Below are positions 12,001-18,000 of a stretch of DNA of 42,375 nucleotides, in pieces. The DNA lies in the IMG/VR virus record IMGVR_UViG_2802429217_000003, one strand, 5' to 3'. A program made the position numbers. How positions within the stretch are numbered: the stretch's first letter is position 1; each line of letters begins with the position of its first letter. Source of the DNA: a virus (Duplodnaviria; Heunggongvirae; Uroviricota; Caudoviricetes).

Positions 12001-15000
12001 CTATGATAAACATGCAGTTGCAGTGTTGCTCATGTAAGGCGCGTAATTTCAATAGGACATCCAAACGTTAGTCGGAAAAAGCCGACTAAAAAAACTGAGT
12101 GGACAAGTAGTGTCCATTTAATTAATGCCATTTTGAGGGTATTGTTAACCGTGTGCATAATGTTCTGATTTATAATACAAAGAGCCTTATCATGTTAAGC
12201 CATTCCGATGTACATCAAACCATGATTACAAGAGAAATTATGACACCGCCAACCAAAATTGATACTTCAAGTCTACTTACCATACTGGGCGTTATTGCTG
12301 CCGTATGGGCCCTTATTACTCCAAACGCTCGACTACGTTTGAGGTTCTGCCTGGCGTGGTGGGATTGGGCAATTGTTGGTTTCGCATTCTTACTAAGCAA
12401 TTATTTGGTGTTTGCACCAGCTTTAAAATCACTAGACTTATATTTTAGTTTTGGCCCCTGGAAATGGGGATTAGATAGTTCAAGTGCCGTATACCTGATA
12501 TCACTCGCAGTTGCTATTTACATTTTATTTCGCTTAAAAAAACCTAAACTTTCAGTTGGAAGAACAGGAATATTTCTAGAGTTAGTGGAAAATTTGCACC
12601 TTACTAAACGATACGATGATCTGGCACAATTGTTGGCACCTCAACTAGAAAAGTTGATATCAATAATTGATAGTCCGGTGAAGAATCGACTTTGTGATAA
12701 GATAGCTAACAATCTCCGCATCTCTAATCGCGAGACTGCTGCCGAATATGCACATGAAGCATTATTAAATATTGTCTCATCACCTGAACTTACCAATCAC
12801 TTTGCACTTGCGCACCCATCCCTCTGCCTTGAGTTAATCAAGATCGAACCAATAGTTCGTTCTGACTTTACTTCTAATTTTATCAGTGCATTACTAGATT
12901 CACCTAACAGTCGTCTATATGTTGAGCTTAAAAATAATCTTAACGTTAGTCGAGGGCATCGTTTGTTGATCCCGAAAAACAATCGTATATTACATTTTTT
13001 CTTTTCCAATGCTAAGTTTGCGGCTGATTTAGCAATATACCGTGACATCGGTGAATATATCTACTGGAGGTTAGATGAAGATGAAAAAATTATTGCTACA
13101 CTTAATAAATCTTTAGGTTCTTATTCAGATGTTTCGAAGTATAAATGTCCTATTTACTCTGGGATCACGCTGTTTGAAATCATGGTTCATGAAGGTATTC
13201 ATCAGGGGCTTCAGGATCATTTATGGCTGCATTACTATACACATTTTGCAAAGAAAATCATAAAGAATATGAATAGGCAGTCGAATGAATATAGTGGTGA
13301 ATGGGAAACACCTTTTCACTTCCTTCTCTGTCATTTATTTAGCATCGCTATAAATTGGGCAGAACAATGCGAATGGATAGATGAAAGGGACATTCTTCAA
13401 GAAAATAAAGAAACAGAAAATTTCGATCTTCATTATATTTCAAAAGAGGCTACCAAATTACTTGGTGCTATGTTGGAGTTGGTTTTGCCTAATTCAAAAC
13501 TCACTTTGAAATCTAGGAAAGATATTCTTGGTATAATTGTGTCTTGTTACATTAGATTGAAAAGGAATAAAAAATTAAAAGACGTCGCTGACTCATTATT
13601 AATTTTCACAACTAGAGGCGAAGGTAATTTGGCATCGCCGTATTATCGTAAAGAACTTCTAGAAATATTCAATACACTTGATGATTATCGATTAAGAAGT
13701 GATGCTCCGGAATTCCGAGAAGCTATAGAGTCTGCGATTCAAGCAAGGCCTAATTAGGTAAATCAACCACCTGCATGGCGGGTGGTTTAGACATAGACCT
13801 CTAAGTACGCTTGGCAGAGGTACCAGTAAACTTGATAATTGGAGTTGTTCTCATCAGTCGTTATGAAAAATTTTGAACTTCTGCTTTTCGCTGTGAGTTA
13901 AACTGATGGACGCAAGACACTTATTGAACCGTTCTGCGGGTGATTCGTAGTCTAGCGTTTTTCTTGGCCGCTCGTTGAGCTGTCTGGCAACACTGTGTGA
14001 ACTGATAAGTCAGTTCCTTTTGGAAAATACTGTCTGAGTAATCTGTTTGTATTTTCATTTGAGCCGCGTTGCCATGGAGATTGATGATCACAGAAATAAA
14101 TCTGAATATATGTCGCTACAGTAAACCGGGTATGGCTGGTCATTTCAGCGCCCCGGTCCCATGTTAGTGTTTTATAAAGCTCAACAGGTAATTCCCGGGC
14201 TTGTCTGATGAGTGCAGATATAACCGTTATGGTCTTGTTGTCTCTGATTTTTGCCAGCATAACAAAGCGGGAATGGCGTTCTACGAGGGTGACGATAAAG
14301 GAGTTTTTCGAGCACTGGATCAGGTCACCTTCCCAGTGACACGGTATGGCTCTGTCTGCAACTTCAGGTGGCCTTTCGCTTATTGGTATCGTATCTGGGA
14401 TTGACCCTAACCCTTTCCCTTTAAGCGATGATGTTCTGGATCTACGAACCGCTCTTCCGCTTCTGAGGCATTGCTGCAGTTCTTTTTTTAATGCACCCCG
14501 GGTTTGTATAAAAAGCGTTTTATAAATCGTTTCGTGTGACACATGCATTTCCTGATTATCCGGATAACAGCGTTTCAGCCAGCCGGCGATCTGTTCCGGC
14601 GACTAGTCCTGATGCATCTTCTCTGCAATGATTTTACACAATGTGGGCTTTCAATTAGCTTGCAAGGTTTTGGTCTCAGAGCATTTTCCCATGCAGCAGT
14701 ATCGGCTTTTGCTGCACGGTATTGTTTGGCACCTCCGTGCCTCCTGACCTCGCGGCTAATCGTTGAAGGCGCTTTTGATAATTTGGCGGCGATGTCCCTG
14801 ATACTGAGTTTTGCTACCACTCCTCTGGATATCTCCTCTCTTTTATCAAGCGAAAGCGCTAATCGGTACCGTTTTCGCACGGGAGGACAGTAGCTCCCTG
14901 TCTGGTGGATAGTGGGCATAATGGAAGAATGATATCTGTCGAACATTCTGGCGATATCATGGAGAGAATCACCTTGCTTATATCTGTCCCAGATAATTGC

Positions 15001-18000
15001 CTTCTGCTCTGGCGTGTAGTTAATCCGAGTTCTTCGTTTCATGGCAACGTCCCCCTTGATTAAGGATAGCGTTGCATCCACTGATTGAACTCACAGCCGG
15101 AAGCGGTCATTCTAGGTCTTTCGAGGAATAGTGAGCACTATATTAATATCTGGCTTATATCTGAGCACCTAGGCGCTTGAAAGATGTGTTACCCTGCGAT
15201 TATACAGTGCGAGATTATTAGTCTCACTTATAAATCTCTAAAATTTAAAGATGCAATGTAATCCTCTTTATAGTAGATTTTCTAGTATGGGGAAGCCACG
15301 TTTTAAGTGCGGTTTGACCAATTTAATGAGCGTTATAACTCATCAATAATAGTTACATGGAGTTGTTTAATGTTTTTATTTTTTCACTCTGAACAAACTG
15401 AAAAAAACACTAGTTATTACAAGGGGTTACTTTTTGAAGAGTTGTTAAAAGAATACTTGGAAGGCTCTGGATACGACATTGAGTTAAGGAAAAAAGAATC
15501 TAGTTTAGAGTACGACATTGAAGGATTCTCTAGAGCAACTGGCCAAAAGATTATTGGCGAAGCTAAAGCACACAGCAAAAGCATGAGTGGACAAACAGTT
15601 GCTGCGTTCGTTGGAAAGCTTTTGCCGCTAGGTCTTCTGGAAAAAAAGGTGCATGGATTATTTCTGTCATTATCACCATTAACACCGGAGGCGGAAGATT
15701 ATTTTCGAACTGTCGAAAATATGGGGTTAACGACAAAGGTAGGAAAGGAACTTTATAACCAAATAACTGCGACTTTGCATTTGCCGACTGAAACATCTCT
15801 ACATAAGGAAATTAAAGGTTATGACCTTGTGGCCCCAAACATTCTCAAGACTGATACGGGGTTGTATAAGTTATTTATTTTAAAAGAGGTAAATTCAGGA
15901 ACGCCATCAAATTTTGTGGTATTCAATAAAAGTGGCAGCCAAATTGATGATGAAAGATTTTTGGAAAATTTAAAAATAGGGATTTCAGAACTTGCTGGTT
16001 TGGATTTCATTATGCCTAGCAAGAAAAAAATAGTTGACGAAATGCCTCAAGTAAAGCGTGAAATAGTTCGAGGATTAACTGTTGGGACTGAATGGGCTGA
16101 CTATAGGCTACCTGCAGGGCCAACTGTGTTCGTTGGCAGGACTGAATTCATAGGTGAACTTCTTTCTCACATCAAACATAATGAGCTACCACATGTTCTT
16201 CAGATAAAAAGTCGCTCTGGAGTAGGAAAAAGCTCTCTTGTATCCTTTTTAGAAAACAAGCTCTCAATGGATGGGGTTATTACTGAATTACATGACTCAA
16301 GGGATGTAAAAACAATATATGATGTTTTTTATCTTGTTCAGAGGTTTACCCAAAGCAGCATTATTGCGACTAATTTTATAGAACTTGATGAACAACTGAA
16401 AGACTTGCAACTTTCACTAAATGGCCAAAAGGCAGTTTTCTTTGTTGACCAATTTGAATCTACATTCTCGAATCCTGACATTTTCGATTGCTATGAATAC
16501 ATTGCGAACTCAATAACAAAGCTTCGTGGTGGTGTATACATAGTGTTTGCGCGTAAAAATGATCAGCTAACAACCTATGACAACAGTAAAGTTTCTCTTA
16601 ATAGAATTAATCAGCTATCGAAAAGCTTTACTCTTCCGGATTTTGAAAACAAAGAATCAATACTTCTTTTAGAAAAAATAAATGAAAATAACTCTAATAT
16701 TCTCAGTAAAGAAATACTACCCTATATTATTGAATTTGCGCAGGGTTTTCCTTGGCTTTTAAAGAGAACGATAGCTCATGTTTTAAAACTCACTCGAAAA
16801 GGTGACTCTCAGAGGGATTTAATCAGTGCGGGCTTAAAACTGAACGACCTTTTTGAAGAAGAGCTTGAAGGTTTGGATGAGATTGAAAAAGATTATCTAG
16901 TTAAGATTGCAGCTAAGCTACCAGCAGATTTCAATGAGCTTCAATACCAATTTGACGAAGACCCAATGCTTGTAAAAGTCCTCGATAAGTTAACAGCTTA
17001 CAGATTGGTACGCTTGAGTGGTTCTACCTACGATACTTATAACGATGTTTTCAAAGAATATCTTGTCTACCAAAAGCTTCCTGAATTTAGACTGCTGGTT
17101 ATTTATAGAATGTATCCAAGCTCTGTTATATCCCAGTTTCATAAACTGATAACAATGAGAAAGCTGACAATTACAAAAATAACGGAAAATCTAAATGTAA
17201 GGGAAGGTTACGCATTTAATCTCGTTAAGGAATTGCGGAATTTAGACTTGCTTGATGCAGTTAAAAGTGGTGAATGGATAATTCCAACCAATGTTAGGGA
17301 TATATATTCTCAAGGAACCCTTGCTGGTTATCTACGCCGAAAAATTTTAGACAATCAACTCGTCGAGACTTTACTTAAAAAAATTCTTTCTGGAGAAAAA
17401 GTTTTCGAGAGCGATATACCCACGTATTTTTCTGAGTCTTATCCTTTTATTGAGGCATCAGAGAAAACATGGGGATTATACTCTACGATTTTAAAGTCAT
17501 GGTTACTTGCCCTAAAAATTATAGAAATTGATGGGGAAGGTCGCATTATTGCCTCAGATGTGTCGCATAATGATGCAACAGCTGAGTTAGGAAATCTTAA
17601 GAAAATTTCGGGCTTAAGGGCAGGAAATAAAGGGCTTTTCTTCCCTGTAACATCTCACGCTAAAATGATTGAAGTTACCAGCTTGATACTGAACGGTAAA
17701 GAGCCTACTGGAAAAGAAGCGCTTAAAGCAAAATCTGATTTAAATAATGCTGGTGTTTTAGTCGATGGGCACTTAGCAGTATCTAATATTGAAGAGCTTA
17801 ATGAGGCACTTACAGCTCAAATACTTGATGACGGCTATGAGGATTTCTGGAAAGCAATACACGCTGGTCAGCCTTGTTATGAAATTTTTAAAGGTATTGC
17901 AGGGGAAGGATTAACTGAGTCCACCCTTAAGTGGCGCTTAAGAAAGTTAACGGCTTTAGCAAAAAAACTGAAAATCATACCAAACAAAAGATTCAAATAT

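Follow-up and report, generated by a model that had tools for sequence, protein, structure and literature searches.

A dead ISCfr4-like insertion sequence that probably marks a rearrangement joint between two hairpin-bordered cargo genes of a Rac-like prophage

The locus

IMG/VR record IMGVR_UViG_2802429217_000003 (Caudoviricetes) is a stretch of 42,375 nucleotides, hereafter the window, and comparison with the annotated 13P484A prophage identifies it as a Rac-like lambdoid prophage. Its gene order runs from recE through replication genes, a low-GC stretch, hok/sok and nin-type genes to a Q-like gene. The low-GC stretch, placed between the replication genes and hok/sok, is a cargo slot in which an IS30-family insertion sequence (IS) sits between two cargo genes, named L and R here. 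This IS is a dead relative of ISCfr4, and it probably marks a joint at which L and R, each bordered by a conserved 24-bp hairpin, were brought together. The three features concerned are as follows.

12153–13757, plus strand: left cargo gene L, 505–534 amino acids depending on the start chosen; no family match
13892–15095, minus strand: full-length but dead ISCfr4-like IS of the IS30 family, 1204 bp long and ancestrally about 1221 bp, delimited by end-to-end alignment with ISCfr4
15307–18003, plus strand: right cargo gene R, with an Mrr-type nuclease domain and an nSTAND1 NTPase, 853–898 amino acids depending on the start chosen

The stop codon of L is followed by the IS after about 135 bp, and the possible start codons of R, which gene callers place at 15370 or at about 15442, come 210–345 bp after the IS, whose transposase gene is oriented away from R.

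Identity and ends of the element

A first-pass annotation of the window had placed an IS30-family element at 13892–15095, and both its coordinates and its family hold. The element spans exactly these positions, with the transposase on the minus strand, and alignments to intact ISCfr4 copies, by BLAST and by direct alignment, start at 13892 and stop at 15095. Membership of the IS30 family follows from profile matches, catalytic spacing, size and IS30-like inverted repeats. An open reading frame (ORF) at 14575–15081 on the minus strand matches the helix-turn-helix (HTH) profile HTH_38 of Pfam at 72 bits, and a second at 13952–14548 on the same strand, in a different frame, matches the DDE integrase profile rve of Pfam at 38 bits and the NCBIfam equivalog NF033563, “IS30 family transposase”, at 194 bits (cut-off 80). 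A DD(33)E spacing is the signature of the family; the catalytic residues of ISCfr4 are D240, D296 and E330, spaced by 55 and 33 residues, and the WEGD, WDRG and NEN motifs are still legible in the middle frame of the window copy. At 1204 bp, the element also falls within the family range of about 1.0–1.25 kb with inverted repeats of 20–30 bp. Its reading as a dead ISCfr4-like member of the IS30 family is close to certain.

The closest named relative is ISCfr4 (1221 bp), with 92–93.3% nucleotide identity over 100% of the query by BLAST, and 93.9% over the aligned bases (74 substitutions in 1204) against a Serratia copy annotated ISCfr4; the comparison is with RefSeq copies bearing that annotation, and not with the reference sequence of ISfinder itself. 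By ISfinder convention, an isoform shares at least 95% nucleotide or at least 98% amino acid identity with the reference element. As 93.9% nucleotide identity and 94.8% amino acid identity, the latter after repair of the lesions described below, fall short of this, the window element is judged from its sequence to be a close relative of ISCfr4 below the usual isoform threshold. The fetched ISCfr4 copies encode an uninterrupted 386-amino-acid transposase, and ISCfr4 is common on plasmids of Klebsiella, Enterobacter, Citrobacter, Serratia and Pantoea.

15069–15095, minus strand: left inverted repeat in transposase orientation, beside the transposase start, TGTGAGTTCAATCAGTGGATGCAACGC; 19/27 matches to the other end and 17/27 to the left repeat of IS30A (the latter counted by hand from printed sequences)
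13892–13918, plus strand: right inverted repeat in transposase orientation, TGTGAGTTAAACTGATGGACGCAAGAC; derived C-to-A change at position 9 (13900)

The element starts with TGTGAGTT (13892–13899) and closes with the reverse complement, AACTCACA (15088–15095), so that the two ends agree at 8/8 terminal bases and at 19/27 overall. The ends had been called intact, which is true of these eight bases; however, position 9 of the right repeat has changed from the C retained in the Escherichia coli Z247 copy and in ISCfr4, and the ends are better described as nearly intact. A GC dinucleotide abuts the element on each side, at 13890–13891 and 15096–15097, as had been noted.

Target site and flanking GC

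ISCfr4-type elements, which encode one transposase with HTH and DD(33)E parts and, by analogy, would move by a putative copy-out-paste-in route, insert into the centre of a GTCCGCT-N4-GC-N4-AGCGGAC target, duplicating its central GC. Flanks were compared for six independent plasmid copies which, together with a truncated chromosomal remnant and the window copy, give eight junction sets. All examined independent copies are flanked by GTCCGCT-N4-GC on the left and GC-N4-AGCGGAC on the right, with N4 spacers that vary by site, and the preference for a nearly palindromic hot spot that is typical of the IS30 family is thus borne out by eight independent junction sets. For the copy at locus L010, the empty site rebuilt with a single GC matches at least 15 plasmids at all 598 of 598 positions, and 80% or more of it is covered in 376 records. 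Because this empty site exists, the lineage truly ends in TGTGAG...CTCACA and, on the sequence of this site, duplicates the central GC of a 24-bp palindrome-like target. The same single-GC empty site rules out the two GC pairs as additional bases of the inverted repeats, and the half-sites are ruled out as parts of the element, since their N4 spacers differ among copies.

The GC dinucleotides themselves say little. GC is its own reverse complement, so that a flanking GC can be read as a duplication or as two more inverted-repeat bases, and because GC is invariant at the centre of the target of every copy of the lineage, its presence on both sides is weak evidence and cannot tell one simple insertion from two events. 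The first-pass annotation had taken the GC pair as consistent with a target duplication and hence with a genuine transposition; the junctions do look transposase-made, but GC flanks every copy and the two half-sites are of different types.

What does carry information is the sequence beyond the GC. The window flanks read TTCTGCT TTTC GC to the left of the IS and GC CGGA AGCGGTC to its right, both in register with the target, with stems that match at 5/7 and 6/7 positions; the probability of such a fit by chance is about 1e-7, estimated by hand from the consensus. Since each flank carries half of the 24-bp target of the lineage, both window junctions are of the kind made by an ISCfr4-type transposase.

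13879–13891, plus strand: left target half-site TTCTGCT TTTC GC, resembling the left half of a type-2 hairpin; the last two bases are the left GC
15096–15108, plus strand: right target half-site GC CGGA AGCGGTC, similar to right halves of type-1 or symmetric-variant hairpins; ATT follows, as at type-1 sites

The right half-site with its flank reads CGGAAGCGGTCATTCTAG, and the sequence preceding it reads CTCACAGC. The hairpin types were defined by an exact-match motif scan of IMG/VR, which found the motif in at least 120 contigs; among the matches listed, 174 sites are non-redundant, of which 85 have a type-1 loop (yTGTGCCArr), 70 a type-2 loop (yyTCGCTCAw) and 19 (about 11%) a non-canonical loop. 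The truncated chromosomal remnant counted above is a different ISCfr4-like copy, 90% identical at the nucleotide level, that lies at locus L135 3001–3693 in E. coli ST131 strain 5506 and is fixed in many E. coli lineages (about 500 genomes). It comprises the half with the transposase start, and next to its end comes the right half of a type-2 hairpin, GC TCAA AGCGGAC.

A rearrangement joint between L and R

On balance, we favour the view that the dead ISCfr4-like IS marks a rearrangement joint between L and R. We infer the rearrangement step and its mechanism from three observations: the half-sites are of different types, the hairpin of an L relative is followed by unrelated DNA, and an empty L–R site was found in none of the collections searched. 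The left flank would be the left half of a type-2 hairpin native to L, and the right flank would be the right half of a hairpin of another type. Beside the window IS, a left half of type 2 is combined with a CG/CA right half; none of the 174 non-redundant hairpins among the matches listed shows this combination, and the six occupied plasmid sites are all hairpins of a pure type.

The second observation comes from 41 E. coli genomes that carry a 91.5% identical homologue of L with neither the IS nor R. Two of them, EcPF5 and ST80, were inspected, and both have a complete unoccupied type-2 hairpin, TTCCGCT CCTCGCTCAT ATCGGAC, at the homologous position. Past this hairpin, homology ends and the DNA is unrelated to the right flank of the window. 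A comparison of that flank with the DNA downstream of L in EcPF5 gave no leftover homology at word size 7, and the protein X of EcPF5 is unrelated to R.

Third, a simple empty L–R site, with a single GC and no IS, would read TTCTGCTTTTC-GC-CGGAAGCGGTC, in full TTTTGAACTTCTGCTTTTCGCCGGAAGCGGTCATTC. A search with a reconstructed 1-kb empty site gave no IS-free junction in 5426 complete E. coli genomes. When the region upstream of R was compared with PLSDB plasmids and INPHARED phages, the plasmids gave only 5'-truncated R and the phages nothing, and a search of GTDB representative genomes with the R protein found one Enterobacter plasmid, on which R is truncated at window position 15525, and no IS-free junction. 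The right-flank pattern occurs in one IMG/VR contig, with the IS present; a right-flank pattern and an empty-site junction pattern each had zero matches in JGI metagenomes; and an exact-protein look-up of R returned 10 contexts, none with IS-free spacing. IS-free versions of the island, which the first-pass annotation had proposed to look for, exist for the relatives of L in 41 genomes, but not for the L–R junction in any collection searched.

Two routes to such a joint can be envisaged. IS30 is known for nearly palindromic hot spots, 2-bp duplications, and hot-spot-targeted deletions that start at the edge of an inverted repeat (PMC9333248). In the first, the IS would have promoted a deletion between hot spots lying close together, such as a type-2 and a type-1 hairpin in tandem, about 42 bp apart; pairs of this kind are common, as at loci L002, L012 and L024. 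The second would be recombination between two IS copies residing in different hairpins. Either route would fuse the L and R cassettes, unlike a clean insertion between genes that were already adjacent, and the target at this position would be the junction hairpin between two cargo cassettes. The earlier suggestion that the IS may have separated the two cargo genes is probably the reverse of what happened, as each gene forms a cassette of its own between hairpins, and the place of the IS is more likely the joint between them.

Several points weigh against a rearrangement. The argument from the hybrid hairpin is statistical; the stems beside the IS are degenerate (5/7 and 6/7), and such sites may be more variable, while hairpins with odd loops do exist (the 19 of 174 above). 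At only 91.5% identity, the L homologue without the IS could owe its different downstream neighbour to an earlier swap of cassettes at that hairpin in which the IS played no part. Neither of two conceivable ancestral arrangements, hairpins in tandem between the two genes or an R preceded by a type-1 hairpin of its own, was found, which leaves the direction and mechanism of the rearrangement hypothetical. The lack of an empty site, finally, may reflect a rare block that was always inherited with the IS.

A plain single insertion, as the first-pass annotation proposed, is in our view a serious though less probable explanation. L and R would already have been neighbours across one unusual hairpin, TTCTGCT TTTC GC CGGA AGCGGTC, whose GC was then duplicated. 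The two flanks agree with the target consensus, in register and with GC on each side, the lineage demonstrably duplicates GC by simple insertion, as the L010 empty site attests, and about 11% of natural hairpins among the matches listed have non-canonical loops; lone hairpins between cassettes also exist, for example in EcPF5 and at position 9321 of locus L024. Yet the required combination of half-sites is missing both from the natural hairpins listed (0/174) and from the other occupied sites (0/6), homology with the IS-free L relative ends at the hairpin, and the empty L–R site is absent from every collection searched. That the inverted repeats and GC pairs are mere coincidence around a stranded transposase fragment without element ends is wholly improbable: general caution that short inverted repeats can arise by chance is all that speaks for it, whereas similarity to full-length ISCfr4 begins and ends exactly at 13892 and 15095, both flanks are target half-sites of the lineage, and the target motif is enriched in the window, with two further sites where 0.07 would be expected by chance.

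Decay of the transposase and its age

The transposase gene of the IS is a pseudogene, with the following lesions relative to intact ISCfr4.

13899–15042, minus strand: transposase pseudogene, 94.8% amino acid identity to the 386-amino-acid ISCfr4 transposase once the lesions are repaired
14645–14647, minus strand: lesion 1, a 1-bp deletion in a G-run, GGG against GGGG in ISCfr4 (column 469 of alignment A2)
14603–14605, minus strand: lesion 2, a TGG-to-TAG nonsense change of the Trp of WSPEQI (A2 column 513 and translation of the frame)
13996–13997, minus strand: lesion 3, the junction of a 16-bp deletion in which AGCCAGCAAAGACTTA was lost (A2 columns 1121–1136)

Lesion 1 is a −1 frameshift that separates the frame of the HTH part from the remainder of the protein, and lesion 3 is a second frameshift, near the C-terminus. 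Lesion 4 is the loss of the stop codon (TGA to TTA) at 13900, the same base as position 9 of the inverted repeat. The first-pass annotation had described a transposase split between an HTH frame and a DDE frame, with a possible homopolymer error at 14548–14575. The two parts do lie in separate frames, but translations and the alignment to intact ISCfr4 place the reading frame in three frames with an in-frame stop; the actual frameshift is in the G-run, and the gap between the ORFs at 14548–14575 arises from the TAG at 14603–14605 together with the next ATG. The window copy thus lacks the uninterrupted frame of an autonomous IS30-family member and cannot move by itself; mobilisation in trans through its nearly intact ends is at most possible.

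Alignment A2 comprises the window copy, the copies of E. coli 13P484A and Z247, and one intact ISCfr4. Lesions 1 and 2 are common to all three E. coli copies, while lesions 3 and 4 occur in both 1204-bp copies (window and 13P484A) and not in Z247, whose copy is 1219 bp long and carries a 1-bp deletion of its own. Two missense changes, at 14110 and 14889, are specific to the window, and the window lineage has 13 derived substitutions relative to ISCfr4 against 3 in Z247. RefSeq labels both fetched E. coli copies “IS30 family transposase; frameshifted; internal stop”, and the IS as such is already known, as an annotated pseudogene of a known family.

The insertion is present in 36 of the 5426 complete E. 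coli genomes, in 7 of which the element matches at 99.8% over the full 1204 bp and in 29 of which a copy matches at 95–99%. The 20-bp flanks in A2 are common to all three aligned copies on both sides. Both flanks were found in 35 genomes, and the IS splits them in 35/35; these include 27 genomes other than Z247, with left-flank matches of 99.4–99.6%. One IMG/VR contig aligns over the entire L–IS–R block at 99.8%, and all 10 public contexts of the exact R protein show the spacing expected with the IS present. Because the aligned copies have identical flanks and the two-flank genomes are all split by the IS, the copies descend from one old insertion. No intact copy of the sub-lineage of the window was seen in E. 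coli chromosomes. As the frameshift and the TAG are identical in independently assembled copies from two genomic contexts, these lesions are old, and the transposase had died before its carriers diverged. All known copies at this site go back to an ancestor that already carried the −1 frameshift and the TGG-to-TAG change; the window lineage later gained the 16-bp deletion, lost the stop codon and accumulated about 13 derived substitutions.

The earlier suggestion of decay after insertion is borne out by the four lesions, and its companion, a sequencing frameshift, is not. An intact, active IS whose frameshift is a sequencing or assembly error, such as a homopolymer miscall, or is programmed, has next to no chance of being correct. 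One lesion does lie in a short G-run, an error-prone kind of place; however, the four lesions are separate and include a TAG stop and a 16-bp deletion, and the G-run deletion and the TAG are identical in independent assemblies of different strains and contexts, among them 13P484A and Z247. To the 36 complete genomes with the insertion can be added 11 further public contigs with the same spacing or alignment. A programmed frameshift conflicts with the single 386-amino-acid ORF of the fetched intact ISCfr4 copies, and IS30-family transposases in general are single ORFs.

Hairpins as borders of cargo cassettes

The two further target sites in the window are unoccupied hairpins that border the two-cassette cargo.

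11945–11968, plus strand: hairpin A, type 1, GTCTGTT TTGTGCCAGG GGCGGAC, with 3 mismatches; left border of the cargo
18109–18132, plus strand: hairpin C, type 2, perfect, GTCCGCT CTTCGCTCAA AGCGGAC; right border of the cargo

A conserved left backbone block (11905–11944) precedes hairpin A, and a conserved right backbone block (about 18133–18172) follows hairpin C. The limits of homology fall at these hairpins: the match to Z247 runs from 11954 to 18133, that to EcPF5 starts at 11945, and 18133 is also where similarity to the truncated R copy of an Enterobacter plasmid stops. When the window is compared with Z247, the left half of hairpin A differs and its right half, including the unusual GGCGGAC, is common, while the left half of hairpin C is common and its right half differs. 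As identity breaks within both hairpins, the unit shared with Z247 runs from hairpin centre to hairpin centre.

This layout is not peculiar to the window. At least 20 prophage contigs share it, with a 40-bp left block, a type-1 hairpin, cargo, a type-2 hairpin and a 40-bp right block, and their cargo spans 1.0–5.4 kb with at least 9 different contents. Arrays with internal hairpins are also found, and the EcPF5 island has the order hairpin–L–hairpin–X–hairpin. Hairpins border cargo in lambdoid prophages, CP4-type islands and plasmids, at sites that include L004 4536/6639/7789, L002 3309/3351/12221 and L024 6164–11551. Known or candidate defence genes among the cargo encode PD-T7-1, a SIR2/ThsA-like protein, PDC-S39 and a CARF-ADA-like deaminase.

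The hairpins had no Rfam match in the window region or at three other loci, and no description of the hairpin sequence or of hairpin-bounded prophage cassettes was found in the literature searched. The hairpins were not recognised as ordinary signals. The stem lacks the T-run that would follow in an intrinsic terminator, and a terminator scan of 11800–18300 called none of the hairpins; a sigma-70 promoter in the conserved left block was not called by a promoter scan, its −10-like hexamers being poor by eye; and a sigma-54-like TGGCAC...GC motif in the same block has its spacing off by one base. In window 11905–11968 and at type-1 sites at L016, L024, L025 and elsewhere, an upstream GGCACAGrG can pair with the loop sequence CTyTGTGCC, a pairing that would exclude the hairpin itself, and the window shows an apparent compensatory change (A-T for G-C); the alternative helix is possible, but the fold z-scores are modest, from −1.5 to −3.

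It is possible, as a tentative proposal that we would not press, that the hairpins are an undescribed class of cassette border at which defence genes and other cargo pass between lambdoid prophages, CP4-type islands and plasmids of Enterobacteriaceae, with crossovers in the loop, and that ISCfr4-type IS30 elements have evolved to home there. If so, the window IS may be a bystander in the exchange, or perhaps a contributor to it. A simpler possibility is that the hairpins are only conserved “linker” homologies or signals at the RNA level.

Two further sites were recorded. Phage lambda (L134 27322–27345) has one type-2 hairpin, TTCCGCT CCTCGCTCAT AACAGAC, which lies at the edge of the b region, with ea59 and attP on either side. 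In IMG/VR contig L108, no type-1 hairpin is detectable at the expected place beside the left backbone block, and the first cargo ORF (412 amino acids) looks like an IS110-type transposase by eye, so these hairpins may serve as targets for a second IS family too.

Cargo genes and prophage context

Gene L had no match in Pfam, NCBIfam or PADLOC. A consensus scan called no plus-strand promoter between the IS and R, and none directed outward from the IS end, which is weak evidence either way.

The L–IS–R block is not confined to prophages. Window 11954–18133 is also present, at 98.7%, inside the pap pathogenicity island of Z247, where the flanks outside the block otherwise differ from those of the prophage. 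The match is broken only by ISCro1, of the IS66 family (locus L002 3418–6116, at window 12004–12011). The block moved between pathogenicity island and prophage after the death of the IS, and independently of this copy's own transposase. L, the IS and R travelled together, with hairpins A and C as the borders of the unit, and reached at least two contexts.

ISCro1 in Z247 lies 43 bp past hairpin A, and the window matches on its two sides share 8 bp, as would be expected of an 8-bp target duplication. In 13P484A, IS1A stands in place of window 11783–13507, and most of L is gone. R is also found on plasmids, 5'-truncated from window position 15525, at locus L012 5000–7608 on an Enterobacter adelaidei plasmid, and a likewise truncated R occurs on Salmonella and Enterobacter roggenkampii plasmids (H111, H112). 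The truncated R of L012 ends at the type-2 hairpin, with homology ending at 18133.

A hok/sok locus follows directly after the right backbone block, from window 18295–18400 onward; the Rfam sok match scores 55.8 bits and is truncated at the edge of the searched range, and HOK_GEF genes are called in matching public contigs. Farther downstream, after the Q-like antiterminator gene, lies a 241-amino-acid ORF (21049–21774), followed by an ORF at 21856–22299. The counterpart of the 241-amino-acid ORF in public contigs matches the Pertussis_S1 and Scabin-like ADP-ribosyltransferase families, and this ORF may be a prophage-borne gene for a pertussis-like toxin of the ArtA/PltA type.

Comparison with known systems

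The element resembles ISCfr4, of Citrobacter freundii and widespread on enterobacterial plasmids, in being collinear over the full length, in its ends (TGTGAGTTCAAC...) and in its 24-bp target with a central GC; unlike ISCfr4, the window copy is 17 bp shorter and non-functional through its four lesions. The literature searched mentions ISCfr4 by name only, in two papers on plasmids.

IS30 of E. coli K-12 is similar in its length of about 1.2 kb, its single HTH and DD(33)E transposase, and its inverted repeats of about 26 bp starting TGT..TTCAA; the left repeats compared are TGTGAGTTCAATCAGTGGATGCAACGC in the window and TGTAGATTCAATTGGTCAACGCAACAG in IS30A. Target duplications in the IS30 family are 2–3 bp long, and the lineage of the window element, on the evidence of L010, duplicates 2 bp as IS30 does. 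Nearly palindromic hot spots are also common to both, and IS30 deletions start at the element edge (PMC9333248). In contrast, the IS30 transposase shares only 47% amino acid identity with that of ISCfr4, with no useful nucleotide similarity, and the K-12 IS30A copy is flanked by AC and does not lie in a GTCCGCT/AGCGGAC hairpin.

Several mobile elements home to short conserved sites, including the IS1111-attC group in integron attC sites, IS1397 and ISKpn1 in the REP/BIME palindromes, and the Tn5053-type “res hunters”. The window element resembles them in its fixed position of insertion in a short conserved palindromic intergenic repeat that is abundant on phages, plasmids and islands. Short “boundary sequences” have reportedly been described at the module junctions of lambdoid phages by Clark et al. 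in 2001. Targeting of REP sequences by insertion sequences is covered in PMC1525189. By analogy with these site-homing elements, the hairpin can be read as a harmless, mobile landing site for the IS. Unlike them, the window element has an IS30-type DDE transposase, and its 24-bp target belongs to no named repeat family in the sources searched.

Like integron attC sites and the lambdoid boundary sequences, the hairpins stand at the borders of backbone and cargo and between successive cargo genes, and identity breaks inside the loop. Unlike attC, which is an imperfect palindrome of at least about 57 bp, they are only 24 bp long. No intI, tyrosine-recombinase or other dedicated recombinase gene was found beside the hairpin arrays in the annotated or gene-called regions inspected; the hairpin-bordered cargo lacks the combination of intI, attI and attC-ended cassettes that defines an integron cassette array.

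Biological significance

Taken alone, the IS carries little weight, although it serves as a clonal marker for the L–IS–R block, which is found in 36 of 5426 complete E. coli genomes and at two locations. It also offers a caution for annotation, since a GC...GC “duplication” is uninformative in an IS lineage whose target centre is always GC. Of broader use is the precise definition of a target for ISCfr4-type elements, which are common on resistance plasmids of Klebsiella, Enterobacter and Citrobacter, and whose landing sites the motif predicts. The one aspect that deserves further attention is that the hairpin is both an IS target and a cassette border: the IS target is a conserved hairpin bordering interchangeable defence cassettes (PD-T7-1, SIR2/ThsA-like, PDC-S39, Mrr-nSTAND1 and others). 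If the hairpins are true exchange sites, they would offer an easily searched sequence tag through which further cargo and defence genes could be found and the reloading of prophage “hotspots” studied.

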